This document shows, piece by piece, positions 29,025-56,354 of a stretch of DNA of 64,000 bases. A model generated the notes under the pieces. The model had not been told where the DNA came from and ran no database searches. It saw only the letters and a list, made by a program, of their open reading frames with translations. Made by a program: the position numbers and the translations under genes. The stretch's first letter is position 1. Every line of letters begins with the position of its first letter. Source of the DNA: a virus (Duplodnaviria; Heunggongvirae; Uroviricota; Caudoviricetes). The stretch lies in the IMG/VR virus record IMGVR_UViG_3300010403_000023. The stretch is one strand, 5' to 3'.

Positions 29025-30833
29025 TTATTCAATTGGTATTCCTATTAAATTTCCCTTCTTATCTTTGCCTATTATTTCATGCTTTTTCCCATTAAAAACA
29101 GCTATTTTTTTTCCGTTTTCCACTATTCTATCTGTCGCGGCAATCGTATTAGGGATAGTTACCTGTACTGCCGGCTGCTTTACGTTAGTTTTTTCCTTTG
29201 AAGTTTCCGTTGCCTGCTTTTCATTAGCATGTACTTCATCTACCCATGCAGTTTTATTTTCGTACACTTTAGGGTCGTAATCAGCTTCATGTTTCAATCC
29301 GTTGATGATGGCCTGTTTTTCAGGTACGGTTGCTACTACTTGGTTATCCTTAAAATATACTAATTTCTTTTCGTGTGTCTTTATATTTTCTACTGGAACT
29401 ACCTTATCTGGAACTACCGACGCTATTGTAGATTTCTGCGTCACTGAATTTCCAGAGGCATCTTTCTGCGTGGTACTCACATCAGGATGAGGTAATCCGA
29501 TGAATTTATCCGCAGTTTTATCAGATATTGCAGGATAAATTTTATATTCCTCCGGATCAATCCCGCTACGCTTCCAAAAATCTGGATATTGTACACTTAT
29601 TGGTTTAGGCGCAGTTCCATTAGTAAAAACGTCTTTAACTTCTGTTGCGATAGATGCTACAGCCTTTTTATCTTGCTCCTGCTTTAATTCCTCTGTCGTA
29701 GGCTTGAGGGATTTACCAGTACGTAGTTCTGTTTCTTTCAGTGCCGCCTCTGCTTCTTCTTTCCGGGCCTTGGCTTTTTGTTCTGTTGTTTTTGCTACCT
29801 CCAGTTCGTCCGGCTTAGTAAGAGCGCCTGACTTTTGCAATTCCAATGCAGTTGCTACTACTCTGGGATCTTGATTAAGCACCACCTTACCATCTGGTGT
29901 TACGGTTCCCAGATTTAGCTTTGGAAAGCCCCTTTGATCAGTGAGGTTATTTACATTCTGTTGCCATGCCTGAAAAGCCTCAGGATTTGTCGCTTCCGGC
30001 AGTTGTGATTTTAAAAGTGCTTGCTGACGGATATACGCCTGGTTAAGCATATCCTTGTCGGTAGAATATAATATAGATTGAAATCTTCTGTTTGGCACAC
30101 CTTCTCCGTCATCAAAACTTTCAAATCCTTTTCCTTCTTTGTAGTCTTTTTCTACGTCAATAAATGGTTTTACTACCGGGCCAGGAAGGTGCGCATCAGG
30201 CATTTTCAAGGCGGATAAAGGAGTGTTTTTTATACCATCTATTACTTGCTGAATTCTTTGTTGTTCATTGGGGTCTGCTGTTTGAGATAACTCCTGCTGT
30301 AATTTAGCCGTTTGTATCTTACGCATAGAGGCTATCGTTTTTAATCTGTCCTGTTTATCCATATCAGATTGAAATTCAGGACTATTAAACGCTTGCGTTG
30401 GATTATTCATCCATTTTTTGCGAAAATCATTTACGGATTTATTTAAATAATCGTCATCTTGCTCCAACGGTGTCATGCTTACATCATTACCATTCTCATC
30501 TTTTTGGTTGAAGGCACTCATTTTGTTTTGATGCAATATTTTAAACAATTCGTTCCTGTCGTCTATCCTTTGCTTGTACTGCATTACTTTGTCTGCATGG
30601 TCGAAGTCCATGAGTTTAGACATAGTATCATGCTGGAACTGGGCCTGCTGGCGTTGTTTTGCTTGTATCGCTGCGTTGTTTTCCGTATCTAAACGGGTGA
30701 ATGTTTCCTGTAGAGGTTGAAAAGGGGCTTTGTTTGATGGATCGTAATTTATAGCACCTCCTCCTAATGCCGGGTCTCCAGGCATACCTATAAGTTGTTC
30801 AGGAGTAAGAAAGGGGGCTGCTATGTCTGCCAT
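29025..30833 (-). CDS. hypothetical virion protein (602 aa; Q-rich)
   Basis: Immediately downstream of the giant gene (4-nt spacing). Confidence 0.65.
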   Translation of the reverse strand: MADIAAPFLTPEQLIGMPGDPALGGGAINYDPSNKAPFQPLQETFTRLDTENNAAIQAKQRQQAQFQHDTMSKLMDFDHADKVMQYKQRIDDRNELFKILHQNKMSAFNQKDENGNDVSMTPLEQDDDYLNKSVNDFRKKWMNNPTQAFNSPEFQSDMDKQDRLKTIASMRKIQTAKLQQELSQTADPNEQQRIQQVIDGIKNTPLSALKMPDAHLPGPVVKPFIDVEKDYKEGKGFESFDDGEGVPNRRFQSILYSTDKDMLNQAYIRQQALLKSQLPEATNPEAFQAWQQNVNNLTDQRGFPKLNLGTVTPDGKVVLNQDPRVVATALELQKSGALTKPDELEVAKTTEQKAKARKEEAEAALKETELRTGKSLKPTTEELKQEQDKKAVASIATEVKDVFTNGTAPKPISVQYPDFWKRSGIDPEEYKIYPAISDKTADKFIGLPHPDVSTTQKDASGNSVTQKSTIASVVPDKVVPVENIKTHEKKLVYFKDNQVVATVPEKQAIINGLKHEADYDPKVYENKTAWVDEVHANEKQATETSKEKTNVKQPAVQVTIPNTIAATDRIVENGKKIAVFNGKKHEIIGKDKKGNLIGIPIE

Positions 30834-30859
30834 TTTTGTTGTTTAATTTTTGTTAGTAG

Positions 30860-30920
30860 GGGCTTGGAATGCTATGAAGGGTCCGTTGCGACGCTCCGTG
30901 CAGGGTTCGGGGAACTATTT
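30860..30920 (-). repeat. IGR-1 copy (variant A, reverse; core TTGCGACGCTCCGT at 30886-30899; GCAGGGTTCGGGGAACTATTTGGC arm)
   Basis: About 75 bp near-identical to the 52385-52460 copy; left boundary of mini-cassette A. Confidence 0.85.
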
Positions 30921-31042
30921 GGCGGTAAGAGGTTTTTTATTGACGACATATCTTCCTTACCGAAGGAATATATTCCTGTTGATGTTCCATGCAACCTCTT
31001 TAGTTCCATTCTTAGCTTTCTTATAAAAAATTTATTTTCCAT
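30872..31042 (-). CDS. cassette A small ORF (56 aa; MENKFFIRKLRMELKRLHG..NSSPNPARSVATDPS)
   Basis: Short ORF between inverted IGR-1 copies; shares a 5' leader and start module (GGATTAAACTTTGTATATTTTATGG) with cassettes B and C and a repeat-encoded C-terminus; speculative. Confidence 0.25.
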   Translation of the reverse strand: MENKFFIRKLRMELKRLHGTSTGIYSFGKEDMSSIKNLLPPNSSPNPARSVATDPS

Positions 31043-31074
31043 AAAATATACAAAGTTTAATCCTTGACTGAAAG

Positions 31075-31135
31075 ATCAACGGAGCGTCGCAAATCAGGCT
31101 GATAGCTATTCTCCGCTGGTAACAAAAATATTTTT
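31075..31135 (+). repeat. IGR-1 copy (variant A; core at 31078-31092; AATCAGGCTGATAGCTATTCTCCGCTGGTAACAAAAATA)
   Basis: Right boundary of cassette A; near-identical to the 36236-36295 copy. Confidence 0.85.
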
Positions 31136-31969
31136 CTACTGCCAGTACATATTCGAAAACGGATTTGTTTGCGTATTTGCTGGTAAGTTTACTGGTTGAT
31201 TTCCTGATGCGTATTGTGGTGTTTCCCCTCCCATTGCTCCAGTCATAAAAGGAGATGAGTAACCACCCATACCTAAATTGCTTCCGCCATAATCCTGTCC
31301 ACTGTTTCCATTTCCTTGCCCATTCCCGCCTCCCGAAGGCATCTGTGACTCTCCTGCACCTCCAGCGCCCTGATCGCCTCCTCCTTGCCCTCCGCTGGAG
31401 TTGCTACTGAACAATTTACTACCCAGTGACATTAACCCGCTTCCTGCCATGTTCAAACCGGAGTTGAACATATTATTTGCTCCTTGAAGTTGCCCGTATA
31501 TGGAAGTCATTTTATCTTTCCACGGCTGCTCTTCATTGATAGTCCACTGCTTATCCTTATTGGCGCTCATTCTGGCCCATACGTTCTGCAGGTTAGACAG
31601 GTGTTGTAGCCGTGCCTGATCTTCGTAGATGGCATTCTGATTGAGTGAATTTTGAGTATTACCAGCAATGGAAGATATAGTATTAGGATCGGCGCCACCT
31701 TTTAACGCTGCATTGTAGGCCGCTGCGGAATTACTTTCCGTTTGGTTTTGAAGCTGAGTACGGGCCGCATCGCTCATACCTTGCCCTGCCTGACTTTCTG
31801 CAAGGTTCTGGATGTTGTATTCCTCTGGATTTATACCGTACTTAGGACGGTTTGCGCTTTCGGCATCATACTGCTGCTGGTATTTTTTTTTATTAATACC
31901 TCCCCAGATGGCTTCGCCTGCGCCAAGTAATAATCCTAACCCACTGCTTGCTATCCCACCGGCCGGCAT
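31136..31969 (-). CDS. Gly/Gln/Asn-rich low-complexity virion protein (277 aa)
   Basis: GGQGGGDQGAGGAGESQMPSGGGNGQGNGNSG tract. Confidence 0.55.
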   Translation of the reverse strand: MPAGGIASSGLGLLLGAGEAIWGGINKKKYQQQYDAESANRPKYGINPEEYNIQNLAESQAGQGMSDAARTQLQNQTESNSAAAYNAALKGGADPNTISSIAGNTQNSLNQNAIYEDQARLQHLSNLQNVWARMSANKDKQWTINEEQPWKDKMTSIYGQLQGANNMFNSGLNMAGSGLMSLGSKLFSSNSSGGQGGGDQGAGGAGESQMPSGGGNGQGNGNSGQDYGGSNLGMGGYSSPFMTGAMGGETPQYASGNQPVNLPANTQTNPFSNMYWQ

Positions 31970-32493
31970 ATAATCAAAGTTTTAGTTTCGTCTGTTAATA
32001 ATTTATTCGTCCTATCCACTACAAAGCCATTTCGTTCAAAAAAGTTTATCGCCCTTGAATTTTTACTCCAAAGTACGATATAATAAGGAGTTTTAAAAAT
32101 ATCTGTCAACTTTTTTAACCATTCAGTCTTCACCTCTTCACTTCTGTATTTTTTATTGATACCAAAGGAATATAACTCATTCGGTAAGTTTTCATTTTCA
32201 ATGATGATTGTATAGCCAACCTCCGCTTCTCCTACTATTACAGCAAAGAACTTAATATCCTCCTTGTAGTGATTGACGTTTTCTTCTATAAATCCCATTG
32301 TATGCTGTACACAGTGTTCCAGCGTACCGGGAGATACATGGTATTGCTCCAGAAGTTTATCGTCTCCTTCAAAGGCCAGTGAAACAAAATGTTCCATGTC
32401 GGCCTTATCAATAGGAACGAGAGAGACTTGGATTTTGTTGTTCATATCCTTCGTGTTCGCAGCAAAATACCATTGTCCACACGAAACTCCCAT
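31951..32493 (-). CDS. possible GNAT-family acetyltransferase (180 aa; start uncertain)
   Basis: C-terminal pattern ..YYIVLWSKNSRAINFFERNGFVVD resembles the GNAT motif A/B region; weak. Confidence 0.4.
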   Translation of the reverse strand: MGVSCGQWYFAANTKDMNNKIQVSLVPIDKADMEHFVSLAFEGDDKLLEQYHVSPGTLEHCVQHTMGFIEENVNHYKEDIKFFAVIVGEAEVGYTIIIENENLPNELYSFGINKKYRSEEVKTEWLKKLTDIFKTPYYIVLWSKNSRAINFFERNGFVVDRTNKLLTDETKTLIICRPVG

Positions 32494-32659
32494 TGGACCA
32501 CACCATAGAAAAATTACGGTGTAGCACCTCGTGCGTTTGTTCGTATGCGTTTATCTTGGCATTAAATTCATCCCGGCCTTTCTCGTAACTGGGGAACTTA
32601 ACGTCAATTATCTCGTAGTATTTTTGCTTCGGACTTTCGTTTTTTTCGTTTTCTGCCAT
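32408..32659 (-). CDS. hypothetical small protein (83 aa); overlaps the upstream track start of the GNAT-like ORF
   Basis: Charged N-terminus MAENEKNESPKQKYYEI; the overlap probably means the neighbour's true start is internal. Confidence 0.3.
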   Translation of the reverse strand: MAENEKNESPKQKYYEIIDVKFPSYEKGRDEFNAKINAYEQTHEVLHRNFSMVWSNGSFVWTMVFCCEHEGYEQQNPSLSRSY

Positions 32660-32669
32660 ATATTTTGGT

Positions 32670-33761
32670 TTACCACGGTCTTGGGGCGGTTTGCATCTTT
32701 GTGATATCCTCCATTCTAACCGGATTTAAGAATTTGAATACTTCCTGTTTTGCTGCACGGAATGCGTACTTGGCATTTAATTTATCTCCCTCACCAATCC
32801 TGGGATTGAGATACTTCTGCCGGTACACCATTCCTATCTGTACGGCCTCTACTGCATATTCCGGTACCAATATCTCACACTCCGGCACTTCACCGTTGGT
32901 TTGATAGCTGAGGATGATTTGGCGGATAGACAAGCGCCACTCATGCTCCTCTTCCACGGTATGTCCGAAGTGAGTGCGTTCGTGTCCACCGAAAATATGG
33001 ATGATCTGGCGATCCGCTGCATTGTAGTTCCATTCTCCCCAGTAATTATATGCGGATGGAATGAGCTCCCGGTAAACATTCCTGTTTTCCCAGAAGAATC
33101 CCTGGTTCTGCCATTCGCTAAAGAAATTACCGCAGCCACAACGTGTTCTGAGCAGGTCCATATTTGGCCGTGTAGCCTTTATACAACCTTTGTCGGTAGT
33201 TTCTACGTTGCAGATGGTTTCGGTCGTGGTATTGTAAATTACTGTCCCTGTACTGGTATCCCAGGAAGGTGTAGTTGTTTGTGTCTGGACTATTCCGTCG
33301 CCGGCATACTTGGTATAGATAGTTTGCGTATAGTCGGTACCTTGTATGTTCACAGTTACAGTCGTAGCGGAGATACTATCAATAGCACCACAAAGGGTAT
33401 CTTTTCCTCCGCATATATCGCAGGTGCATTTTGATTTCAGGCAACGTATCTCTGCGGTGTTCAGGGCGGTATTAAATCCTAATGGATGGAGTATGCCACG
33501 GCAGTCTATAACTGATAGATTGATCACACGTTCGCAGTCGTTTGGCAGTGTGATGGTGTCGTTATGGCAGTCTATTGGAAGTACAGTTTTTTTGATGTCG
33601 TATATGGTGCCACGATAAACGTCTTTCCAGCTCCATTTCGCATGACGTAACTGCTGCATGTACAACGCCTCACGCATATTTCCTTGCGCAAGACAGAAGT
33701 CATCTACCATGTCTGATAGAGGCATTACTGTGTATCCATATTGACGAAATGTTTGTGACAC
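32670..33761 (-). CDS. hypothetical Cys-rich structural protein (363 aa)
   Basis: Clean ORF. Confidence 0.6.
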   Translation of the reverse strand: MSQTFRQYGYTVMPLSDMVDDFCLAQGNMREALYMQQLRHAKWSWKDVYRGTIYDIKKTVLPIDCHNDTITLPNDCERVINLSVIDCRGILHPLGFNTALNTAEIRCLKSKCTCDICGGKDTLCGAIDSISATTVTVNIQGTDYTQTIYTKYAGDGIVQTQTTTPSWDTSTGTVIYNTTTETICNVETTDKGCIKATRPNMDLLRTRCGCGNFFSEWQNQGFFWENRNVYRELIPSAYNYWGEWNYNAADRQIIHIFGGHERTHFGHTVEEEHEWRLSIRQIILSYQTNGEVPECEILVPEYAVEAVQIGMVYRQKYLNPRIGEGDKLNAKYAFRAAKQEVFKFLNPVRMEDITKMQTAPRPW

Positions 33762-33899
33762 TGGTTCTTTTTGTTTTTACTTTTTTTACTTGGGCCCATT
33801 ACTTTTATTGTCTTAGGAGATATCTGTCCGTTTTGGGAGATATTTATCTCTTTAAGTAAGCGTAGCCAAGTTGCATATATATCTATAACCGCCATTGTT

Positions 33900-33985
33900 T
33901 TTTTTGTTAGCCATCATTCTTATCGCTTGGCATCGCCTGTTGCGACGCTCCGTGCGGGGTTCGGGGAACTATTTAACTTTTCTCC
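33900..33985 (-). repeat. IGR-1 copy (variant A, reverse; core at 33940-33953; TTGTTAGCCATCATTCTTATCGCTTGGCATCG arm and GCGGGGTTCGGGGAACTATTTAAC arm)
   Basis: The 5' arm is near-identical to 35975-36010; left boundary of cassette B. Confidence 0.85.
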
Positions 33986-34114
33986 TGTTAAAAACATGTG
34001 ATTCATTTCGGTTGCGGCCTCCTCAAATTTTACGATCATTTCTACCGGTATAAAAAGCACACTATTCTCTTCACATTTATCTTGCTGGTTCATAATTTTA
34101 TATTTTATACTCAA
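33920..34114 (-). CDS. cassette B small ORF (64 aa; ..GEKLNSSPNPARSVATGDAKR)
   Basis: From the ORF track; flanked by inverted IGR-1 copies; the C-terminal third is repeat-encoded. Confidence 0.3.
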   Translation of the reverse strand: MSIKYKIMNQQDKCEENSVLFIPVEMIVKFEEAATEMNHMFLTGEKLNSSPNPARSVATGDAKR

Positions 34115-34134
34115 AGTTTAATCCTTAAATGCAG

Positions 34135-34195
34135 TTGAACGGTGCCATCGCAAATCAAGCAAAATAGCATCCCGAACCTCTGCTATCAAAGTTTC
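34135..34195 (+). repeat. IGR-1 copy (variant B; core AACGGTGCCATCGCAA at 34138-34153; ATCAAGCAAAATAGCATCCCGAACC)
   Basis: Right boundary of cassette B. Confidence 0.8.
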
Positions 34196-34213
34196 CCACA
34201 AATACCCACTTCT

Positions 34214-34477
34214 CTACACTACTTCCCAGTTTGTTGCTTCTTTATCTTTTTTCGAAGGTACATATACTGCTACTTTACAATCACATATCCTTTCTTTACA
34301 GTCTTCAACCAGTAAATTTTCTGCAGCATAGTTTGTTTGTTCAAAATCTTCGTCTCTGAACAATCTTACTATCCTACATCCATCCCAGTCTGCACAACGT
34401 ACCGCATTACCATCTAAGGCTGCTTTCTTAGCCAGCGTATAGGTCATATTTTTTGTTGGCGTGTATGTAAGTACCAT
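34214..34477 (-). CDS. hypothetical protein (87 aa)
   Basis: Clean ORF. Confidence 0.5.
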   Translation of the reverse strand: MVLTYTPTKNMTYTLAKKAALDGNAVRCADWDGCRIVRLFRDEDFEQTNYAAENLLVEDCKERICDCKVAVYVPSKKDKEATNWEVV

Positions 34478-34483
34478 GGTCTC

Positions 34484-35179
34484 TTATTTTCCTAAATTTG
34501 GATTTACCTGCTGCTCCATTACAGCATTTGGGTTTTGATCATCTACTTTCTGCACTACTGTACCTTGTCTTGCTTTTGCAAAGATAGTCCAAACTGCTTC
34601 AACTATTTCCGGTACTATATTATCTGACATCAGGCAGTCATTATCCATCTGTGCTATTTCCGGTATATACTGATAGGTAATTTCATAATTTTCCTTTGCT
34701 CCCCAGAATACCACCTCGCTTCCCGGTTCTTTCTGACCGTTAAGATAAAAAAGAATTTTTGAAATAGAGGGCATTACCTGGCGAAATCTACGCTCGTTGA
34801 GTGATATTTTACGAAAAGTACAGCAAGATTGCCCTTGCTTGCCTGAACTATGTATTCCCTGTAACGCTGTGGCCGCACCATCAAAATCGAATGAATATAC
34901 CGGATGCTTGGTAATGATGTAGTGCTTATGCGTGGTTCCATCATACTGTATTTCTTGCGTTTCTTCCAGCAGCCATGTCCCAGGTATCTCAATGTTAGGA
35001 AAGCCGTCCATTTGCTTGTTAAGGCGACGTTCCTGCTGATAAAAAGTATTGAGCATAGAACTGTAGGTAGTGGCCACATGGAATTTGAAGTCGTCAATAT
35101 CCAGGAACCTGTCCCCGGGCGTATAGTTTTGCTCGTACAGATCCTGAACTCTTTGTGCTACTTCAATTAGTTTTGCCAT
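34484..35179 (-). CDS. hypothetical structural protein (231 aa)
   Basis: Tight spacing within the structural operon. Confidence 0.6.
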   Translation of the reverse strand: MAKLIEVAQRVQDLYEQNYTPGDRFLDIDDFKFHVATTYSSMLNTFYQQERRLNKQMDGFPNIEIPGTWLLEETQEIQYDGTTHKHYIITKHPVYSFDFDGAATALQGIHSSGKQGQSCCTFRKISLNERRFRQVMPSISKILFYLNGQKEPGSEVVFWGAKENYEITYQYIPEIAQMDNDCLMSDNIVPEIVEAVWTIFAKARQGTVVQKVDDQNPNAVMEQQVNPNLGK

Positions 35180-35964
35180 TACTTGTTTGCTAAAATTTCT
35201 TTTTTATCATTATCGCCCATCTGGTACATCTTGTCGTCACCTATATATGCTGCATATTTCTTTTGTAGTTCAGCCAGGAAGATAGGCGTTACCTGCTCGC
35301 TCCACTCTAGCTGCGTACTGCCTGTTGCGTCATAAATAGCAATATCATTTACTATCGTGTATGAAAATACGGATTTTACCGGAGTTTTGAGATAATATAA
35401 CAGGATGGAGTTCACTCCTTTTGGCGCTACCTTGAAACCACCTTGAAATTGAGTCATCTTCGGTTTCTTGATGGTCGCACCTTTTGTCTTGTGCTCCAGA
35501 CAGGATGGCCAGCGCTGCAGGTCAATCAGTACGAGTTGTCTTTCCTCTATGTTGGCGCCGGCGAAGTTTATTGCCAGTTGCGCCATATCCGGGTCATTCC
35601 ACCTTTTACTATTTCCTTTTGCGTCAATGATCGGGTAGGCTTGGTTGCAGAAACAGGTATCTTCTTCTGCCTGGACCAATATTGATCCGTTGAGAAAGAA
35701 TTCATAATTTGCCGGATATACGGCTATACCGAAATTCCCTCCTGGTTGAGGTGTTACTATAATATTAGCGTACAGGGTGAAGGGGCTGAGAAAATCACTT
35801 AGGATTTGGTTTATTGCATACTCTTCTGCTAATTTTTTGAAGTACCAGTCTGATACTTCATTATACCAATTATTAAAGACAGTAGGAGGTATCTGTCCGT
35901 TTTGAGAGACATTTACTAAAGTCATTAATCTTTGCCAGGTAGTGAAGTTATTTATTACTGTCAT
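35179..35964 (-). CDS. hypothetical structural protein (261 aa)
   Basis: Start/stop overlap (ATGA-type) with the downstream gene. Confidence 0.6.
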   Translation of the reverse strand: MTVINNFTTWQRLMTLVNVSQNGQIPPTVFNNWYNEVSDWYFKKLAEEYAINQILSDFLSPFTLYANIIVTPQPGGNFGIAVYPANYEFFLNGSILVQAEEDTCFCNQAYPIIDAKGNSKRWNDPDMAQLAINFAGANIEERQLVLIDLQRWPSCLEHKTKGATIKKPKMTQFQGGFKVAPKGVNSILLYYLKTPVKSVFSYTIVNDIAIYDATGSTQLEWSEQVTPIFLAELQKKYAAYIGDDKMYQMGDNDKKEILANK

Positions 35965-35974
35965 TTTTTACTTT

Positions 35975-36050
35975 TTGTTAGCCATCATTCTTATCGCTTG
36001 GCATCGTCCCTTGCGACGCCCCGTTTTAAGGTTCCGAACTACTATCATCT
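35975..36050 (-). repeat. IGR-1 copy (degenerate variant A, reverse; core TTGCGACGCCCCGT at 36011-36024)
   Basis: Left boundary of cassette C; arm shared with the 33900 copy. Confidence 0.8.
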
Positions 36051-36205
36051 TCTCTTTTTTTATTTATCCTCCATATAAATCCAGCAGGAACATCAAACTC
36101 AAATCGTTGTACTAAAATAGGCGTATAATTACCAAATGGATTATAGTCCGGTGGATGGTAAACAACTTTTCTTAATGGTCGCAGTGATTGATCTTCTCTT
36201 TCCAT
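36026..36205 (-). CDS. cassette C small ORF (59 aa; MEREDQSLRPLRKVVYHPPDYNPFG..)
   Basis: Short ORF between inverted IGR-1 copies; same leader and start module as cassettes A and B; speculative. Confidence 0.25.
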   Translation of the reverse strand: MEREDQSLRPLRKVVYHPPDYNPFGNYTPILVQRFEFDVPAGFIWRINKKREDDSSSEP

Positions 36206-36235
36206 AAAATATACAAAGTTTAATCCTTAAATGCA

Positions 36236-36295
36236 GATCAACGGAGCGTCGCAAATCAAGCTGATAGCTATTCTCCGCTGGTAACAAAAATATTT
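36236..36295 (+). repeat. IGR-1 copy (variant A; core at 36239-36253; AATCAAGCTGATAGCTATTCTCCGCTGGTAACAAAAATATTT)
   Basis: Right boundary of cassette C. Confidence 0.85.
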
Positions 36296-39200
36296 AAATC
36301 AATGACGTCGGACTATACACTCCAACCCCACTTATCGGCACCACATTATAAATATCCAGAGTAGGCATATCTATTAACCCTAAGAACTGTCCATTAATTT
36401 TATACAGCAATATTGAACTACCCGGAGCTCCATATCCAAAGTTATCAATAGTAAGAACACCCAGACAGTTACCGAGTGGTTTAAAGTTATATCCTCCTGT
36501 AATTGTTCCACTTACTATGGACTGCATATCCGCAATTACCGGTGTTCCTCCCAGTGTTGGTGTACTGAGCATGATCGCACAATACCTGCCTGTAATAGCC
36601 TGCGTCACCCAGTAAAGCACTGTTGCAAAGTAAACAGTATTCAATCTGTACTGGAATGCCGCACTACCTCCAAGGAGTAATGAGTATGGCACCTTAACCC
36701 CCGTAGATACCGTATATTTAACGACGGTAGCAAACTGACCGCTAAAGTATATGGTATCTACTCCGTCAAATGACGCAGCCCATACATCTTCTGTACCATT
36801 AGCTATTATTGTAGTAGTGCTGATATTATGGGATACCATATCAAATATCGGTATCAGCCCTATCCCTACTGTGCTGGGCCTTCCTCCTATCTGCGTTTCC
36901 ATATCGCCTTCCTGCGTGAAATAGAGCGATCCATTTATCAGGCACCGTGGGCATTTACCTATCAGTTGATCAAACTGGTTGGAATACGTAATCCCGGTAC
37001 CTGAGCCGTACATATCCAGTATCCATAGGCATCCTGTCGTACTTTCTACTACAACTATAGCATTCAGACTCATGCTGGCATAAGTATCAGTAGGGAAGTA
37101 GAGTGAGTAGAGCGATGGAATTAATGTAGGGCTGCTTTCCAATGTTTTAGTATAAGGAATACCGGTAAAACAGTCTGCCACTACCGCATTCAATGATATG
37201 GTCCTGATAACAGTTGGAAATAACGGAGTGGATACATCATAAAATGTAATCAACCCGGTATCTGTTTCTGTATCTGCCATTACGCTACCCTGCTTAATTG
37301 TATGCCACTTCCTTTTATTGGCCGTGGCACCCGGAATTTTACCTATTTCAGCCATGGTATGAAGCCCTATTCCGTACTGACCGTTTGCGGTAGACGGGGG
37401 GCTGGTCATGTTCGCATGATTAGCCCCGTAGAGCAGGTAATTAGCACTTCCTTTATCCAAGATAACCACCGGAGGACCAGTATAGATGGCGCAGTTGGTA
37501 TTTGTAACCACAATATTGTTTATAGTATATCCAGCGCTGAAAGTAATGACTGCTGGTTTTGTGGGAGTCGCATTAAGTGCAGCTATCAGTGCTGTAATAT
37601 CTGCTACTATTCCCAAAGCTACATTACCCCCTCCTATGCCAAAATTCACAACGGCATTTAGCGGAAAATCGGCTGCTGTAACTACAGTAACCACAGGCAG
37701 GCAGTAATCGCTTAGATTCAGTACGTAAAATTGCTTGCCGTTCACGCATACATCTGAGGTGGATAATGTGTCTACAGGAATAGTTCCCGGGATTGAGGCA
37801 GGATTGATAAGATTGCACTGAACCGTACAGTTATCCTGGACAGACCATGTGCCAAATACGTTCCAGCTTGAGTCACCGTTAAGAATGCTCACCACATCAT
37901 TAATCGTATATGCTATACCTATCACGTTCACTCCGGCTGCATCATATATGCGCAACGATGGATTAAATGGAGTAGTGGCGGGACATCCGGTAGGCGGGGT
38001 AGAGCCTCCGACAATCACCATAGTATCTGTTACGATAACAGGCGGTACGACCGGAGTGCTGGATGGGATAATTTTAACAACAGGAATAGTCGTACCCGCA
38101 TTTGCCGGATAAAATCCTACAACGCAATTACCTTCATTAAATGCTGTACCATATACCATCCATGCGGCATTGGAGTTAATGATACTTACCATGTCGTCCG
38201 CTGAAGTTGCTGTACCGATAACAGTCACTCCAGTCGGATCATACACATCGGCTGGGAAGTAACTTAATGGACAGATGGCAGGTGGCAATGACGTATTTTT
38301 ATTCAGGACAACAACCTGAACAGGACAACAACCTGAAATTCCGGATGAAGAGCTTCCGCCATTGGTAAAACTTACCCCTGTGTTTTCATCGCAGCCACAA
38401 TCGCAATTTTCATCCAGATTGGCTAATTTCTGTATTTCAAGTATTAGTTTCGTAACATCAATTCCACAAAGTGGCTGTAAAATACCGGTAATAATTTCGC
38501 TGAAAAGCAGATTTACACGGGTTATTTTATTCATCAGCGAAGCGTCCTCTAATGTACCACATGTTTTTTTAGAGAGTTCATAAAACTTGTGTATCTGGCA
38601 ATTTAGTTTGCATAGATTTATATTGCACAGCACCGAAAAAATAATTCCTATCTGCCCATTTTTATCATATGCTTTATACTGAACCTTTACGCTCACATTA
38701 TCGCCTAACACATAGGTACAATAATCATACAGGAATAACGTAAAACCATTAGCACTATAAGACGAAAAGAAGGTAATATACGGGAATAATCCAGTGCCGC
38801 TATCCCCGTTAGTTGGCTGATTGCCATTTATATCTGGTGGATACTCCAACACCCATCTATTTGTAATAACTGAAGGGATGATTACATTGTTATAAGTAAA
38901 ATTGGTAGTATCAGAACATATTATTTTTGCTGGATTAGTAGTGCAGTCTATTTTTACGGAGGCATTGGCCTTTCCAAAATTTCCGCACGTATTACTATCA
39001 TTCCCATTTGGCCGCGTAAGTAATACTGATTTTGATAAAGCGTAGTATGGGTTAGGATTAAGTGTAGGATCATCAGCAACATATACCGTTACTACATAAG
39101 GGCTATTGGTAGAAAACTCTACCTGGCCACATGGAGGTGTACCGAATGGAGTTGGTATTTGCTCGGGCACCACAATAGTTGACCAAACTACACCATTAAC

Positions 39201-39431
39201 ATCCGGAGGTAATGGCAGCGCAGGTGAAAATGGATTAGGTACAATGGTTAATATCCCGCGATGAACTGCTATTCCGCTTGGCGTAACTATAGAATACCAC
39301 CATTTCAGGTTTGCGGGTATAAGGACGGTACTTAAATTAGTTATAGTAATCGTCGGTGTGGCGCCTGAAATATCAAACAATACCCCGAAATCAAGGTTTG
39401 TTATGGCAGAACTATTTATAGGAAGACCCAT
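36294..39431 (-). CDS. large tail-fibre or receptor-binding-like protein (1045 aa; Thr/Gly/Val/Asn-rich with Cys clusters)
   Basis: Composition typical of beta-rich fibre proteins; CDCGCDENTG cluster. Confidence 0.7.
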   Translation of the reverse strand: MGLPINSSAITNLDFGVLFDISGATPTITITNLSTVLIPANLKWWYSIVTPSGIAVHRGILTIVPNPFSPALPLPPDVNGVVWSTIVVPEQIPTPFGTPPCGQVEFSTNSPYVVTVYVADDPTLNPNPYYALSKSVLLTRPNGNDSNTCGNFGKANASVKIDCTTNPAKIICSDTTNFTYNNVIIPSVITNRWVLEYPPDINGNQPTNGDSGTGLFPYITFFSSYSANGFTLFLYDYCTYVLGDNVSVKVQYKAYDKNGQIGIIFSVLCNINLCKLNCQIHKFYELSKKTCGTLEDASLMNKITRVNLLFSEIITGILQPLCGIDVTKLILEIQKLANLDENCDCGCDENTGVSFTNGGSSSSGISGCCPVQVVVLNKNTSLPPAICPLSYFPADVYDPTGVTVIGTATSADDMVSIINSNAAWMVYGTAFNEGNCVVGFYPANAGTTIPVVKIIPSSTPVVPPVIVTDTMVIVGGSTPPTGCPATTPFNPSLRIYDAAGVNVIGIAYTINDVVSILNGDSSWNVFGTWSVQDNCTVQCNLINPASIPGTIPVDTLSTSDVCVNGKQFYVLNLSDYCLPVVTVVTAADFPLNAVVNFGIGGGNVALGIVADITALIAALNATPTKPAVITFSAGYTINNIVVTNTNCAIYTGPPVVILDKGSANYLLYGANHANMTSPPSTANGQYGIGLHTMAEIGKIPGATANKRKWHTIKQGSVMADTETDTGLITFYDVSTPLFPTVIRTISLNAVVADCFTGIPYTKTLESSPTLIPSLYSLYFPTDTYASMSLNAIVVVESTTGCLWILDMYGSGTGITYSNQFDQLIGKCPRCLINGSLYFTQEGDMETQIGGRPSTVGIGLIPIFDMVSHNISTTTIIANGTEDVWAASFDGVDTIYFSGQFATVVKYTVSTGVKVPYSLLLGGSAAFQYRLNTVYFATVLYWVTQAITGRYCAIMLSTPTLGGTPVIADMQSIVSGTITGGYNFKPLGNCLGVLTIDNFGYGAPGSSILLYKINGQFLGLIDMPTLDIYNVVPISGVGVYSPTSLI

Positions 39432-44371: not shown

Positions 44372-44465
44372 GAGATCGAAAAATATTATTTCTTATCAAA
44401 AGTAGATTGCCTATTGCATTTTAAGAATAGTCTGCTTACATTTGTAATGTATATTTACATTTAGA

Positions 44466-52299: not shown

Positions 52300-52384
52300 A
52301 AGAAAACAAAAATAGTTTTGTTACTTGCTTTATTTGAGAAAAAGTATTTATTTTGTGTGTAGATTTACATTTACTATTTTTGTT

Positions 52385-52460
52385 GGTAGGGGTAAGTAAT
52401 TCTATTTCCCGTCCGTTGCGACGCTCCGTGCAAGGTTCGGGTTTCAATTTAACTTTTTAT
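52385..52460 (-). repeat. IGR-1 copy (variant A, reverse; core at 52425-52438; GCAAGGTTCGGGTTTCAATTTAAC arm)
   Basis: Near-duplicate of the 30860-30920 copy. Confidence 0.85.
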
Positions 52461-52465
52461 ATTTT

Positions 52466-52909
52466 ATGATAGTATGGTTAGGCATTCCTGATAAAAAAGA
52501 AATTTACGATGCTATCCGTGAATTTGAATATTTCGATTCATCATTAAATAAAATAAAAGAATTCAATTTTGCCGGGATGGGGTTATTTCGGATGATGATG
52601 GGCGAAGAACATAAAAAGTATGATTTGGAGCATAGCATTGTTCGGCAACTTAAAGAAGTTGAAGACATTCTTCAATCCTATAATTCAGAACAAGATGCGG
52701 AAAATAATTACGGGAATGACCAAAATAAAAGATGGGAAGATTTATGCGATGATCCCTCAAAAATATTTACAACAGACCTTTTAAAAATACCTTTACTAAG
52801 TGAAGAGCAGTTTAAATTTTGGTTGGAAATATATCAAACTATTAAAGAATATGCAATGTTAAATAGTTCCCCGAACCCCGCACGGAGCGTCGCAACAGGC
52901 GCTGAATAG
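52466..52909 (+). CDS. hypothetical protein (147 aa), first gene of the chaperonin operon; C-terminal NSSPNPARSVATGAE from IGR-1
   Basis: The C-terminal peptide is shared with the cassette A and B ORFs. Confidence 0.5.
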   Translation: MIVWLGIPDKKEIYDAIREFEYFDSSLNKIKEFNFAGMGLFRMMMGEEHKKYDLEHSIVRQLKEVEDILQSYNSEQDAENNYGNDQNKRWEDLCDDPSKIFTTDLLKIPLLSEEQFKFWLEIYQTIKEYAMLNSSPNPARSVATGAE

Positions 52910-52935
52910 CCGCAACCAACCCTGCTGCAAAAAGA
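52861..52935 (+). repeat. IGR-1 copy, most complete forward instance (AAATAGTTCCCCGAACCCCGC-ACGGAGCGTCGCAA-CAGGCGCTGAATAGCCGCAACCAACCCTGCTGCAAAAAGAAA)
   Basis: Contains both arms, the core and the tail. Confidence 0.9.
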
Positions 52936-52944
52936 AACACAAAC

Positions 52945-54663
52945 ATGATCACTCTCCCATACATAGACCACAAAGAGAACAGGAACATAAACCTTCTTAT
53001 AGTAGAACCCTACCCCAAAGAAGCCACAGTAACAGCCGGTGACATATTTATACCTGCTAATATCGGAGATGAATGTGAAGAAGGTAAAGTAATATCTGTC
53101 TGTCCCAGTTCTGAATTTTCTCCCGGTGACCGTGTGGTGTACAAAAAGATGGACCGTGACAAAAAAGAAAACTACGAGACGGTAGAAATGGACGGTAAAA
53201 CCTACGACATCATAGGTGAAAAAGAAGTGTGGGAAGTAAACGGCAAGCCATACAATCGGATATTCGTAGAACCTCTCTCTGTGATAGAAATGGCAGAAGA
53301 CGGCATTGTGCTTCCACAGTCTGCCCAAGGGATTACCCAGAAAGGCATAGTTTATAAAGCACCAGATAATTTCTTTGTAAAAAAGGGAGATACCGTGGAG
53401 TACCGTAAAAACTCCATGCGGATATACTACACTGCGAACGAAAATGGTGTTGATTATGATATTCTATACGAACCGGACATCTTCCTGGTAAACGATAAAG
53501 TATCTCCCCACAAGATCATTGTAAAGATTGACCTTGCAGCCCAGCAGATAAAGCGCCAGACGAATGAGATGGGCATATCACTCTCTCCATTGTTTCAGCG
53601 AATGACCAGGATGCTACAGTACGGCGAAGTCACGGAAATTGGCGAAGAGGCACAAAAGATATACCCGAAGTTGGTTGAAGGCGATACGGCCATCCTGCAT
53701 CACAGCATAGAATACGACGACTACCGGGTATTAAAAATGGATAAAGGAAAGCATGGCACCTTCATTTATGAATATCGTGTTATTAACTGCTTCGACGTTA
53801 CCCACCGGGAGATATTTGGCCGTATATCCAACAAAAAGTTATACGGAAAAATACCTAACTTCAAGATCATTCCCTTCCATAAAAACATCTTCCTAAAATG
53901 GGATTTCGAACTACTTGAAAAAGAGAATTTAGAATCCCAGTTCATTGATATTAATTTCAGCCTGGATGATTGTAAAAACAAAGAAGACCTTGAAAGTACC
54001 GTTACCGCAAAGCGAGAAGCATCCGTAAGAATGTATAAAAGCAAGTGGCAAGGATATCAGGCTGACCTTGCACTTTACAATCCGATGATAAAGCAGGATA
54101 ATGACAAGATGCGGGAAATTGGCGCTAAGATAGATGCACTGAAAAGGGAGGCTGAATCGAATGCAAGATACGTGCAGCAGGATCATTTACTCCGGTGCAA
54201 AATAGCATTTCCGCTTACTATCAACAATGAGGTAATCACCACGTACAAACATCTGTATCCGATCAACATTTTAGGTAAAAAATATCTTATTGCTCACAAA
54301 GACCTTTTAATAGCAAACCGCATGGAAAATACAACGACAGGGTGGCTACCAATAGCCGATCAAGTGCTGGTACAGCCAGTGGAAGAAAAATCAGATACTC
54401 GTATTTTTATTCCTGACAGCGCCAGGGAGAAGCCGCAACAGGCACTCGTAATCGCCGTAGGCAAGGATGTTGACCCTAACGAAATACAGGAAGGAGATAC
54501 CATTTTTCACCGCAAAATATCCGGCGTAGAAATGAACCTGGATGGCACCAATTACCTGATGCTGAGAAGAAATGATATTTTCGCTTCTAACCGTAACATA
54601 AGAAAGATGGAAGAAGAACAAATGTTGAATGGTGCCATCGCCACAGACGGCGATAAACAATAA
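52945..54663 (+). CDS. multi-domain co-chaperonin: about five tandem GroES/Cpn10-like domains in one 572-aa polypeptide
   Basis: Domain 5 (aa 466-547) WLPIADQVLVQPVEEKSDTRIFIPDSAREKPQQALVIAVGKDVDPNEIQEGDTIFHRKISGVEMNLDGTNYLMLRRNDIFA aligns along its length with E. coli GroES; domains 1 (aa 14-100), 2 (104-183), 3 (188-285) and 4 (about 305-457, with an insertion) repeat the same pattern (G.V..VG, GD.V.Y.K, DG..Y.I....DI). Confidence 0.8.
   Translation: MITLPYIDHKENRNINLLIVEPYPKEATVTAGDIFIPANIGDECEEGKVISVCPSSEFSPGDRVVYKKMDRDKKENYETVEMDGKTYDIIGEKEVWEVNGKPYNRIFVEPLSVIEMAEDGIVLPQSAQGITQKGIVYKAPDNFFVKKGDTVEYRKNSMRIYYTANENGVDYDILYEPDIFLVNDKVSPHKIIVKIDLAAQQIKRQTNEMGISLSPLFQRMTRMLQYGEVTEIGEEAQKIYPKLVEGDTAILHHSIEYDDYRVLKMDKGKHGTFIYEYRVINCFDVTHREIFGRISNKKLYGKIPNFKIIPFHKNIFLKWDFELLEKENLESQFIDINFSLDDCKNKEDLESTVTAKREASVRMYKSKWQGYQADLALYNPMIKQDNDKMREIGAKIDALKREAESNARYVQQDHLLRCKIAFPLTINNEVITTYKHLYPINILGKKYLIAHKDLLIANRMENTTTGWLPIADQVLVQPVEEKSDTRIFIPDSAREKPQQALVIAVGKDVDPNEIQEGDTIFHRKISGVEMNLDGTNYLMLRRNDIFASNRNIRKMEEEQMLNGAIATDGDKQ
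54628..54642 (+). repeat. degenerate IGR-1 variant B core (AATGGTGCCATCGCC) encoding the C-terminal NGAIATDGDKQ of the multi-GroES protein
   Basis: Direct reading of the sequence. Confidence 0.45.
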
Positions 54664-54708
54664 AAAGTTCGGACAACAATTTTTAAAAAATAAATTCACA
54701 AATAACTT

Positions 54709-56259: not shown

Positions 56260-56273
56260 AATTCTTTTGCTGC

Positions 56274-56309
56274 CGGCGTCGCAAATCTATTGAGCTTGAT
56301 TTGCGACGC
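56274..56309 (+). terminator. 12-bp perfect hairpin GCGTCGCAAATC-tattgagctt-GATTTGCGACGC built from two inverted IGR-1 half cores, 15 nt after the groEL stop
   Basis: Direct reading of the sequence; not followed by a clean T-run. Confidence 0.45.
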
Positions 56310-56354
56310 TCCGTTCTGCGGCATTTCTTCTACAATATTTTCTCATACTAAGAG

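Follow-up and report, generated by a model that had tools for sequence, protein, structure and literature searches.

Morons, known from the HK97 and lambdoid literature, are extra genes that lie between genes adjacent in related phages, and by definition they bring a promoter and a terminator of their own. The MPMEs of mycobacteriophages are ultra-small mobile elements of ~440 bp, which are copies of a single element and have their ORF in common. In T4-like phages the 'mobile regulatory cassettes' called PeSLs combine a sigma-70 early promoter with a terminator stem-loop (Arbiol et al. 2010, PMC2839356; Comeau et al. 2014, PMC4122927). PeSLs are in direct orientation, occupy hyperplastic regions and can excise as mini-circles. 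Host-specific MITEs in viral genomes are called vMITEs (Nadal-Molero et al. 2024, PMC11602168). REP, REPIN and BIME elements complete the list of comparable systems (Bertels & Rainey 2011, PMC3116915; Di Nocera et al. 2013, PMC3733652).

The window considered here is the whole 64,000-nt stretch of phage DNA that was analysed. Three junctions between virion genes in it each hold an insert of ~300 bp, and this observation is confirmed as real (Table 1). Two inverted, outward-facing copies of a repeat of ~85-100 nt, IGR-1, enclose a minus-strand ORF in each insert, and the small ORFs run in the direction of the virion operon. The core-to-core spacers of cassettes 1, 2 and 3 are 181, 187 and 218 nt, and the junctions are 302, 318 (plus 134) and 329 nt long. 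The original prediction of three tiny minus-strand ORFs with unrelated bodies, each bracketed by inverted IGR-1 copies, was borne out; the three payloads have no similarity to one another. It also treated the repeat as a boundary peculiar to the cassettes, but IGR-1 is a family of about 40 copies in the window. An arm reads, in order, inner ATAG box, core, second AATAG(ATAAAC) box and outer end CTGCTGCAAAAA. The core is an invariant 13-18 nt, (T)GAACGGAGCGTCGCAA(C), or the variant CGGTGCCATCGCAA. As a 15-mer with at most 2 mismatches it occurs 20 times against 0.04 expected. The 37 intergenic copies alternate, with a change of orientation at 27 of 36 steps (p = 0.002).

Like morons, the cassettes place an extra small gene between genes that are neighbours in relatives, and the GC of their interiors is lower (34-35.5% vs 41.6% for the block). 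Unlike morons they have no promoter or terminator that we could find, and they are framed by a genome-wide repeat that donates start and tail. The likeness to MPMEs is that of a very small insert, bounded by inverted repeats, with a small ORF and variable presence among relatives. However, every payload here differs and the arms belong to a large dispersed family.

We argue that small-gene cassettes at these junctions are made by recombination or gene conversion between dispersed IGR-1 arms. This is a tentative reading, with a probability of roughly 0.45. The arms contribute directly to the genes around them. The upstream arm supplies the leader, to which it adds the ATG-GAA start in cassettes 1 and 3. 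In cassettes 1 and 2 the payload takes its final codons and stop from the downstream arm. The downstream arm then supplies an A-rich leader for the next structural gene. A leader and start common to all three cassettes had been taken for a module of the cassette, but arm alignments place it in the inner end of the antisense arm. Cassettes 1 and 3 have the string GGATTAAACTTTGTATATTTTATGG without a mismatch, while cassette 2 shares GGATTAAACTTTG and then diverges. In cassette 1 this inner end gives the leader TTAAACTTTGTATATTTT and the start ATGGAAA, and the antisense arm of cassette 2 has the same inner end, AAGGATTAAACTTTG. The peptide end ascribed to two of the ORFs is there, since o1 and o2 both finish in NSSPNPARSVAT, but this tail is arm sequence, the inner half of the sense arm (arm alignments). 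The last 17 codons of o1 (NSSPNPARSVATDPS and stop) are arm-encoded. Beyond them the outer end of the sense arm, CTACTAACAAAAA, continues up to the start codon (ATG) of the 602-aa gene. Elsewhere in the window, a full-size unit built in the same way holds a 147-aa ORFan (52466-52909) that begins after TTTAACTTTTTATATTTT and ends NSSPNPARSVATGAE and stop; it too finishes in NSSPNPARSVAT, and a homologue search found none for it.

Table 1. Coordinates of the three cassettes, their arms and ORFs, and a larger unit of the same build.
Feature	Coordinates	Strand	Detail
Cassette 1 insert	30834..31135	-	from 277-aa gene stop (31136) to 602-aa gene ATG (30833)
Cassette 1 antisense (upstream) arm	31036..31133	+	core 31080-31092
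o1, 56 aa	30872..31042	-	unique part ~37 codons
Cassette 1 sense (downstream) arm	30840..30925	-	core 30886-30898
Cassette 2 insert	33896..34213	-	after stop of 87-aa (Tad2-like) gene at 34214
Cassette 2 antisense arm	34100..34195	+	variant core CGGTGCCATCGCAA at 34140-34153
o2, 57 aa from ATG, 64 from TTG	33920..34093	-	ends NSSPNPARSVATGDAKR and stop
Cassette 2 sense arm	33901..33990	-	core 33940-33952; chimeric, joined at core
Relic 5' end of 261-like gene (MAVIDIYATWLRLL...)	33762..33895	-	upstream of true 363-aa gene start
Cassette 3 insert	35965..36293	-	from 1045-aa gene stop (36294) to 261-aa gene ATG (35964)
Cassette 3 antisense arm	36199..36295	+	core 36242-36254
Cassette 3 sense arm	35972..36050	-	core 36011-36023 = CGGGGCGTCGCAA, one mismatch
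o3, 59 aa	36026..36205	-	stops just ahead of core
Full-size unit of cassette build	52364..52947	+	antisense arm core 52416-52428, sense arm core 52883-52895

In ~16 relatives the genes at the cassette junctions lie close together (-1 to 39 nt apart) or have no more than one arm between them. The junction of cassette 1 measures 3-32 nt in L003-L006, and in L008 and L203 it holds just one sense arm. That of cassette 2 measures 0-39 nt in L003-L006 and has one sense arm in L008, L009 and L011. That of cassette 3 is -1 to 20 nt in six relatives and carries one antisense arm in L198. The single-armed cassette junctions of L008 are 62-105 nt long. The gene tables of five further relatives have no cassette-sized gap except one of 195 nt. 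These comparisons support the view that the cassettes are extra DNA at junctions otherwise tight or single-armed in relatives. The closest relative in the databases has 71% protein identity, so there is no before-and-after pair with exact breakpoints. In L199, a distant relative (53% identical), the same gene block contains four cassettes with the architecture of those in the window, with ORFs of 54, 79, 51 and 109 aa between the arms. Two of them sit at the junctions of cassettes 3 (the 54-aa ORF) and 1 (a different ORF from o1). The flanking genes are orthologous to those of the window (33-64% identity), and none of the L199 payloads matches the window. Three of its ORFs end ...ERSVATEA(K/Q) and stop, and two of its antisense arms end TTAAACTTT(G/T)-ATT-ATG. 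The cassettes of the window and of L199 belong to two non-sister lineages, and they could equally reflect a functional requirement at these junctions.

All the cassettes of the window and L199 (7 of 7) have an ORF on the gene strand that takes up 70-87% of the spacer (Fisher p 3e-9). On this basis the payloads are probably real orphan genes, and we infer that they are expressed. Taken singly, o1 fills 80% of its spacer (shuffle p 0.015), o2 75% (p 0.017) and o3 81% (p 0.004). The codon score of o2 (0.44) is gene-like and is reached by none of the wrong-frame windows, that of o3 (0.16) is gene-like and is reached by ~0.5% of them, and that of o1 (0.04) is ambiguous. Protein searches found no homologue for any payload of the window or L199, so the same payload is not seen in two contexts. 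Only o2 itself was matched among 1.84 billion representative proteins, and only o3 itself in an index of 5.8 billion proteins.

One can imagine that these are non-coding doublets, REPIN- or BIME-like pairs of repeats around a junk or relic spacer, with accidental ORFs. The missing homologues and the score of o1 would fit this, as would a start codon and tail encoded by the arms. Residues 10-39 of o3 also resemble residues 431-460 of the window's 1655-aa protein (47% identity, pairwise E 9e-7; tblastx E 1e-4), so that the interior of o3 resembles a piece of the 1655-aa gene, and host genomes too have (-,+) pairs 188-333 nt apart. Accidental ORFs would not be expected to fill the spacer on the operon strand in seven cassettes of seven, however, nor to give the codon scores of o2 and o3. 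Larger units of the same build are filled by ORFs of 109-210 aa, one of them methyltransferase-like. IGR-1 does resemble REP, REPIN and BIME elements in being high-copy and extragenic, in both orientations, with frequent inverted neighbours and occasional in-frame genic copies, and CGTC-type REPs are also without a known transposase. But REPs are palindromic hairpins of 20-40 nt, and IGR-1 is ~85 nt, non-palindromic and folds like background. Unlike REPs it showed no RAYT association. We consider accidental ORFs very improbable.

Within genomes the IGR-1 arms are mosaic and homogenised. The similarities of the 5' and 3' halves are nearly uncorrelated among 703 copy pairs (r = 0.16), and the arms of L199 and L008 have lineage-specific 3' modules. 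The sense arm of cassette 2 has a 5' (inner) half 84% identical to the 52883 copy and a 3' (outer) half 90% identical to the 36011 copy of cassette 3. Such mosaicism and homogenisation favour arm recombination as the route by which small genes are put in or exchanged. Between cassettes 1 and 3 the antisense arms are 95% identical across 98 nt while the payloads are unrelated, which speaks for recombination among arms. The boundaries at the repeat cores are not always as clean as was supposed, as cassette 2 has taken along 134 nt of a 261-like gene. The segment 33814-33953 is 79% identical to 35883-36024, and the 363-aa homologue of relatives starts where the window has GTG at 33761. This relic fragment came in together with the sense arm of cassette 2. 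A unit with inverted arms cannot enter a single-arm junction by a double crossover; homology in the flanking genes or some other mechanism is needed.

Transposition would make the arms the terminal inverted repeats of a MITE- or MIC-like element, whose core is recognised by a transposase that acts in trans and comes from the host or from the phage genome outside the window. Whole arm-payload-arm units, or arms alone, would then move into intergenic DNA of host and phage. The arms do face outward with similar termini (TTTTTGTTA...TAACAAAAA), the variable linker of the 2748-aa ORF tolerates in-frame copies, and viral genomes with host-shared MITEs are documented (PMC11602168). One arm pair even occurs in unrelated contexts. 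The IMG/VR contigs L035 and L057 have only two arms in common (110 nt at 94.5% and 124 nt at 88.7%). Between these arms lies a 157-aa Cys-rich ORF in the one contig and, in the other, a DPPY methyltransferase-like ORF of 210 aa; each of the two ORFs continues into the sense arm as ...LNSEQNPERSVAT.... However, the three cassettes show no target-site duplication, all interiors differ and no whole element is present twice. There is no transposase, recombinase or endonuclease domain in the ~80 window proteins scanned (the three longest ORFs individually), and no such domain is enriched beside the 137 host copies. Most copies are solitary arms, and in cassette 2 the neighbour-gene fragment lies outside the arm. 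The suggestion that the cassettes are MITE-like is not supported, and we regard transposition as unlikely. IGR-1 also differs from vMITEs, although it too is a short intergenic repeat common to a bacterial lineage and its phages, spread within the phage and host-inferring. Single arms are not TIR-bounded and doublets carry different coding payloads. Phage-host identity is limited to the core +/- 10 nt, far under the vMITE cut-off of 95% over full length, and the repeat density is ~0.66 per kb against a reported vMITE mean of 0.18 per kb (PMC11602168).

The identical 13-15-nt core in inverted orientation around ~200 bp in cassettes 1 and 3 might also suggest a switch, in which a site-specific invertase flips the segment, as happens with the invertible promoters of Bacteroides or the G/C segments of phages. 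It does not make sense for cassette 2 to have cores of different types (A and B), or cassette 3 a mismatch, if this were so. The window proteins scanned have no recombinase domain, ~40 cores facing both ways would lead to a scrambled genome, and the orientation agrees in both independent assemblies. A switch is scarcely credible.

The 18-mer core is found at >120 loci in Chitinophagaceae chromosomes; the 80 record titles listed are all (80/80) Chitinophagaceae, Chitinophagales or another Bacteroidota. The chromosomal copies have the box layout of the phage copies. They are dispersed, 94% intergenic and in both orientations, as transposition would also have it, and adjoin 204 different housekeeping Pfam families. 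The core is present in other phage contigs as well as in these chromosomes, so IGR-1 is a dispersed repeat of the host family, and Chitinophagaceae is the probable host family. This sharing with host chromosomes and unrelated phage contigs was missed in the original prediction.

The repeat could instead be punctuation for expression, a standard intergenic signal of the phage and host group, with the cassettes as ordinary small genes that are flanked by the element on both sides, as many other genes of the phage are. It might bind a protein, or the pairing of antisense and sense arms around a gene might create an element for RNA processing or stability. The arms would then have no special mobility role, and this is compatible with arm recombination. 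Arms directly precede ordinary genes in either orientation (2712, 4836, 8105, 8666, 10130, 10980, 12189, the 636-aa gene and others). Single arms at the junctions of cassettes 1 and 2 in L008, L203 and L011 keep the core while their flanks have diverged. In alignments the sense arm has stops in all three frames and then an A-rich leader. The cores of paired arms can make a duplex of 14-17 bp, and a long-range stem is predicted for cassette 1 RNA (z = -4.7). But cassettes 2 and 3 fold like shuffles (z -0.5 and -1.5), folding is weak overall (mean z -0.5 for host copies, -1.0 for window copies) and no consensus RNA structure was found over 43 copies. Cassette 2 joins an A-type with a B-type core. 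Host copies show no preference for one orientation, or for convergent, divergent or tandem contexts, which argues against a promoter or terminator role. Sigma-70-type promoters, terminators and TAnnTTTG are not enriched, and a loose Bacteroidota-type -7-like TAAACTTTG is the only candidate expression signal seen; the suggestion that the cassettes bring expression signals of their own is not supported. Most relatives have the same junctions without any element. We think punctuation alone is a possible but rather unlikely account.

Arm recombination resembles what has been proposed for PeSLs. In both systems a short conserved intergenic repeat frames small ORFan genes, related phages differ by repeat-bounded indels or replacements, and modular shuffling by repeat recombination is proposed. 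The cassettes differ in that neither the PeSL promoter nor its stem-loop was found, the arms are inverted, they lie inside a virion-gene operon and the repeat is common to the host chromosome. In our scenario the conserved core and boxes would act as portable stretches of homology at many junctions between genes, where recombination and gene conversion among the arms would insert, replace and reshuffle short genes. The arms shared by L035 and L057, the alternating orientation of the window copies and the copies in host chromosomes also count in its favour. A partner arm could lie in the same genome or in that of a co-infecting phage, possibly also in the host chromosome, and the inverted orientation of the arms would protect the insert against deletion through direct-repeat recombination. 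The first interpretation is thus partly supported. Its idea that small genes are seeded into a conserved structural operon fits the presence and absence in relatives, the recurrence in L199, the non-random ORFs and the mosaic arms. The three inserts indicate a repeat-driven route by which small genes may be seeded into an otherwise conserved operon.

Three cassettes interrupt the virion operon as the original prediction described them. In each, a core on the minus strand faces a core on the plus strand, and a small minus-strand ORF (o1, o2 and o3, in cassette order) lies between the two repeat copies, which we call arms. The best-supported reading of these loci is that they are repeat-framed small-gene cassettes resembling morons. 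The arms are inverted with their outer ends directed away from the payload, so it is the upstream, antisense arm whose inner end forms the predicted common leader and start module. The string GGATTAAACTTTGTATATTTTATGG of this module is found unchanged in cassettes 1 and 3 and in part in cassette 2. The terminal peptide NSSPNPARSVAT is indeed common to o1 and o2, and in-frame translation of the downstream (sense) arm's inner half yields it. The payload bodies show no relation among the three cassettes, also as predicted. The 147-aa gene at 52466-52909 has the cassette build and the same tail as o1 and o2.

Coordinates of the cassettes, the repeat modules and other features
Feature	Position	Strand	Details
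Cassette 1	30834-31135	-	cores 30886 (-) and 31080 (+), spacer 181 nt; o1, 56 codons
Cassette 2	33896-34213	-	cores 33940 (-) and 34140 (+), spacer 187 nt; o2, 57 codons (64 from TTG)
Cassette 3	35965-36293	-	cores 36011 (-) and 36242 (+), spacer 218 nt; o3, 59 codons
Repeat module, ATAG box	about 20 nt 5' of core
Repeat module, core			CGGAGCGTCGCAA, or variant one base longer, CGGTGC(C/T)ATCGCAA
Repeat module, AATAG(ATAAAC) box	about 10 nt 3' of core
Repeat module, outer end			CTGCTGCAAAAA; usually leads into the next gene's start codon
Arm pairs of the small-gene region	(10068-,10590+), (10936-,11647+), (12145-,12552+)		antisense and sense arm
Arm-framed unit, contig L035	2209-2803
Arm-framed unit, contig L057	1523-2277
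RepL-like protein	6168-6698	+
636-aa SPFH/Band-7 protein	14234-16144	-
Large terminase	17776-20013
572-aa protein	52945-54663	+	GroES at C-terminus; ends in arm-encoded ...LNGAIATDGDKQ*

The repeat is a modular element of about 85-100 nt, as an alignment of about 40 copies shows. Since the copies were collected by way of the core, its conservation is in part ascertainment. The core 15-mer occurs 20 times in the window with up to 2 mismatches, against 0.04 expected. Nearly all window copies are intergenic, they lie on both strands, and neighbouring copies alternate in orientation (27 of 36 switches, p = 0.002). In the small-gene region (10016-12617) single genes for 152-, 218- and 113-aa proteins follow one another, each with an antisense and a sense arm around it, so the cassette build occurs beyond the virion block. 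There are also copies inside a gene. The 2748-aa ORF (20775-29021) holds two in frame, at 24416-24428 and 25862-25875 (-), in low-complexity variable linkers that read ...EVERSVATGAQSDKQ... and ...EPTGAIATEAAK..., which recalls the Rickettsia palindromic elements inside genes. The relatives L008 and L009 have one in-frame copy at the orthologous place in their counterparts, and the giant ORFs of L198 and L199 hold the core-like GGGAGCGTCGCAA.

One can imagine that the arms are expression punctuation common to the small genes and many others. Either orientation may directly precede an ordinary gene. The payload ATG is preceded, at 3-16 nt, by a sequence (TAAACTTTG) that comes near the Bacteroidota -7 box. 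Sigma-70-type promoters and intrinsic terminators are at or below shuffle expectation in the block, and none was found at the arms. The Bacteroidota motif TAnnTTTG has 68 matches where 62 are expected, with a few well-placed sites (44397-, 44437+, 17652-, 52307-). Some antisense arms start TATTTTTG, but there is no general rule as to TAnnTTTG, and the repeat as a Bacteroidota-type promoter was rejected for want of a consistent pattern across copies. The core as an ECF-type (GAAC-N16-CGTC) or sigma-54 site fails on spacing or order across copies. The arms may still act as punctuation, and this is compatible with the cassette reading. Distant from any repeat copy, two exact, divergent -7 boxes lie at 44390-44450. 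The minus-strand box, TACTTTTG, is 26 nt upstream of a 376-aa gene; the plus-strand box, TACATTTG, is 22 nt upstream of a 108-aa gene. These are likely genuine host-type promoters.

Structured RNA was also considered. RNAalifold finds no pairs on 43 phage or 129 host copies, eight host loci have no Rfam match at E up to 5, and mean folding z is -0.5 for host copies and -1.0 for window copies, against -0.16 for random windows. Some single copies show hairpins on inspection, which do not hold for the copies in general, and a long-range stem around the ORF is convincing in cassette 1 only. Between the convergent GroEL and 1655-aa genes (56249-56439) two arms are just 73 nt apart (56301-, 56374+), and in the arm at 56301- the core is duplicated as a perfect palindrome of 12 bp (GCGTCGCAAATC...GATTTGCGACGC). 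This pair may be a bidirectional end-of-transcript structure. Several ORFs end in the frame '...ERSVAT' or 'NGAIAT', where the ATAG box supplies an in-frame stop. The stop codons of most upstream genes come ahead of the core, however, and of 13 host ORFs only 2 pass through it, so we reject a conserved C-terminal peptide and read the peptide as a by-product of the arm.

It is worth considering whether the loci are non-coding repeat doublets. No homologue was found for o3 in an index of 5.8 billion proteins, for o2 among 1.84 billion representatives in an exhaustive phmmer search, for the 147-aa protein, or for the ORFs of the cassette-bearing relative L199. The 147-aa protein has no Pfam match, and profile search, which had been suggested as a check of the payload peptides, returned no Pfam match for o2 or o3. 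An operon-strand ORF fills 70-87% of the spacer in all seven cassettes of the window and L199; such coverage is rare in shuffles of each (p 0.0005-0.035), with a combined p of 3e-9. With the long genes as its training set, a codon-usage score gives 0.28 +/- 0.13 for real genes and -0.40 +/- 0.26 for the wrong frame. By this score o2 (0.44) and o3 (0.16) are within the real-gene range and far above the wrong-frame range, and o1 (0.04) is ambiguous. Residues 10-39 of o3 resemble residues 431-460 of the window's 1655-aa protein (47%, E 9e-7), so at least one payload may stem from a gene fragment. We argue that non-coding doublets are unlikely. The payloads are probably genuine orphan genes that evolve fast; the case is weakest for o1.

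The check proposed with the original prediction was whether related genomes have or lack the cassettes with clean boundaries at the repeat cores. Homologues of the 261-aa protein that adjoins cassette 3 number about 50, at 35-71% identity. No relatives above 71% protein identity were found, and scans of IMG/VR proteins and with a two-core pattern gave no match. We compared the junctions in the DNA or gene tables of about 17 related contigs. In about 16 of these the junctions are tight or have at most a lone arm. The boundary of cassette 2 is imprecise. The three junctions measure -1 to 39 nt in L003-L006 versus 302-452 nt in the window, and the 20-kb block of these relatives has no repeat copy at all. 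Lone sense arms occupy the sites of cassette 2 and/or cassette 1 in L008, L009, L011 and L203, and in L198 the cassette 3 site has a lone antisense arm. Gene tables of three more contigs show no cassette-sized gaps apart from one of 195 nt. L199 (Ga0316224_1000335), whose flanking genes are orthologous to the window's at 33-64% identity, has four arm-ORF-arm units of identical architecture (ORFs of 54, 79, 51 and 109 aa). The first and last of these occupy the junctions of cassettes 3 and 1. Three of its payload ORFs terminate ...ERSVATEA(K/Q)*, two of its antisense arms terminate TTAAACTTT(G/T)ATT-ATG, and one payload starts MENIEYP (compare MENKFF in the window). The L199 payloads do not resemble any window sequence.

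The arms themselves have mosaic similarities. Cassettes 1 and 3 have unrelated payloads, yet their antisense arms agree at 95% over 98 nt, ATGGAAA included. The sense arm of cassette 2 is chimeric, with an inner half like the copy at 52883 (84%) and an outer half like cassette 3 (90%). Beyond that outer half, the likeness to cassette 3 continues for 134 nt, into what is left of the 5' end of a 261-like gene (33762-33895). This relic now precedes the true start of the 363-aa gene, so boundaries are not always at the repeat. Over all 703 copy pairs, similarity of the 5' half and of the 3' half is almost uncorrelated (r = 0.16), and core type A or B assorts independently too. The outer module is homogenised within L199 and within L008, with a version particular to each. 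Under the cassette reading, recombination or gene conversion between arms would gain, replace and reshuffle cassettes at particular junctions of the virion operon. The relic appears as a 56-aa ORF at 33725-33895 (-) (MAVIDIYATWLRLLKEINISQNGQISP...), a diverged copy of the 261-aa N-terminus fused ahead of the 363-aa gene. The two overlap in different frames across an A-rich run (AGTAAAAAAAGTAAAAAC), the end of the relic ORF with the GTG start of the 363-aa gene (33761). The A-rich run resembles a slippery site, which makes a frameshift fusion of the relic ORF and the 363-aa product possible.

The window comes from a metagenomic contig of 83.9 kb (ENA ERZ27256657 k141_815351), and a 2-kb Logan contig is identical to it over 33948-36001 and ends at repeat cores. 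It looks like a novel tailed phage. None of 50,697 GenBank phage records matches it at the nucleotide level, and its terminase has just a distant relationship (about 22-29%) to those of Flavobacterium and Cellulophaga podophages. The window has no tRNAs and no Rfam families at gathering thresholds. The GroEL gene is directly downstream of the 572-aa GroES-fusion gene (together 52945-56259), and there is a tail-fibre-like protein besides the 2748-aa ORF. A scan of window proteins gave a Sigma70_r4 match, whose carrier is not among ten early-region proteins scanned; our guess is the small terminase. The 87-aa gene adjoining cassette 2 (34214-34477, -) has a sub-threshold likeness to Tad2 (Thoeris anti-defence 2, PF11195; E 1.3e-4, 22.9 bits vs a cut-off of 25), also flagged for the homologous genes of L004, L005, L008 and another relative. 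It is possibly an anti-defence gene within the virion block. The ORF at 7144-7674 (+) is an Imm5-like immunity-protein gene (Pfam Imm5, E 9e-11) with a GC-rich tandem array of 9-15-nt units (CGCCGCCGCCTA/GA...) at 7467-7619.

The repeat is found beyond this clade. An IMG/VR scan with the 15-mer core gave mostly chance singletons, with true copies in L028, L035, L036 and L057. L035 and L057 are otherwise without detectable likeness and have two arms in common (110 nt at 94.5% and 124 nt at 88.7%); small GC-rich hairpins just outside the arms are common to both as well. The pair of arms in one contig encloses a Cys-rich ORF of 157 aa, that of the other contig a DPPY methyltransferase-like ORF of 210 aa, and both ORFs extend into the sense arm as ...LNSEQNPERSVAT....

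We searched 185,579 species genomes with the 18-mer TGAACGGAGCGTCGCAAC and found at least 120 loci, where chance would give about 17 spread over all phyla. Among the matches listed, 80 of 80 record titles are Chitinophagaceae, Chitinophagales or another Bacteroidota (Chitinophaga, Segetibacter, Flavihumibacter, Terrimonas, Niabella, Puia, Flavisolibacter, Cnuella and others). The matches fall on many contigs per genome. Host copies are 94% intergenic and have both orientations and tandem, convergent and divergent contexts in equal frequency. They have the box layout of the phage copies, their neighbours belong to 204 different ordinary gene families, and 16 of 24 adjacent pairs are inverted. 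This layout and distribution make the repeat a dispersed element of the host family. Phage-host identity is confined to the core +/- 10 nt, and density is about 0.66 per kb in the phage versus <0.16 per kb in host loci that were themselves picked for carrying a copy. With the shared repeat as the basis, the Chitinophagaceae are the probable hosts. An arm pair (-,+) on a host chromosome (L091 7019-7994) surrounds an ordinary transaldolase/F6P-aldolase-like gene, so inverted pairs round single genes exist in bacteria too. In another host locus (L114) a (-,+) pair 209 nt apart encloses short ORFs only.

The cassettes were predicted to be moron-like or MITE-like. There is a likeness to morons: each is an extra gene between genes adjacent in relatives, with deviating base composition (interiors 34-35.5% GC vs 41.6% for 29025-39431). 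Morons also have their own promoter and terminator, of which the block shows no excess, only the -7-like box. The MITE likeness lies in the terminal inverted repeats. Cassettes 1 and 3 have an identical 13-15-nt core and similar termini, but cassette 2 pairs different core types. No direct repeat stands beside the outer ends of cassettes 1-3, and there are no whole-element copies with a non-coding interior; the interiors hold ORFs and are unrelated to all fetched sequence. MITE sharing between hosts and viruses has recently been described (PMC11602168), and the cassettes overlap with it. A transposase acting in trans may recognise the core. No transposase, integrase, invertase or homing endonuclease was found in the window proteins scanned, and among 137 proteins neighbouring host copies there is neither enrichment of transposases nor a cognate transposase or parent element.

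PeSL-mediated shuffling is known in T4-like phages (PMC2839356, PMC4122927), and the reshuffling of cassettes proposed here would work like it. Both have a repeat that bounds ORFan indels or replacements between related phages, imprecisely at cassette 2. However, the arms lack the PeSL composite of sigma-70 early promoter and terminator stem-loop, and they are inverted in 7 of 7 cassettes, unlike the direct orientation that leads to deletion or mini-circles. Like REP/REPIN sequences, the repeat is a high-copy extragenic chromosomal element often in inverted pairs (at least 120 loci, 94% intergenic), but it has no consensus structure in place of their 20-40-nt imperfect palindrome with a stable hairpin. 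RAYT is not among the top families of the 137 neighbours. The cassettes therefore belong to none of these families: promoter, stem-loop and direct orientation fail for PeSL, target duplications and identical whole copies are lacking for MITEs, and the defining hairpins are lacking for REPs. Invertible switches would have inverted crossover sites, as the arms are inverted, but those sites are identical and cassette 2 pairs an A-type with a B-type core. The window also has no recombinase domain, and we consider switches unlikely. Integrons have attC in one orientation where the arms alternate, and the window has no integrase domain that could be IntI.

It is a long shot that the core, (T)GAACGGAGCGTCGCAA(C), is the site of a putative host or phage recombination enzyme that captures and inserts genes framed by inverted arms. 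If this were true there would be a gene-cassette system unlike integrons and known transposons, active in Chitinophagaceae chromosomes and their phages, whose arms also supply start context, C-terminal tail and stop codon to the captured ORF.

The core string retrieves unrelated primers only in the searchable literature, and a dispersed repeat with an 18-nt core kept across many genera has been undescribed so far. It also gives a host prediction, the Chitinophagaceae, for an uncultured phage group. It has long been asked how phages come by the many small orphan genes found between the genes of otherwise conserved operons, and this clade is a concrete, testable case. Depending on lineage, the virion-gene junctions are empty, hold a single arm, or hold a complete arm-gene-arm cassette. 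The gene at these junctions differs between cassette-bearing lineages, and the framing sequence is a repeat family also dispersed in the chromosomes of the probable host family. This ties moron-like gene gain to a repeat shared with the host.
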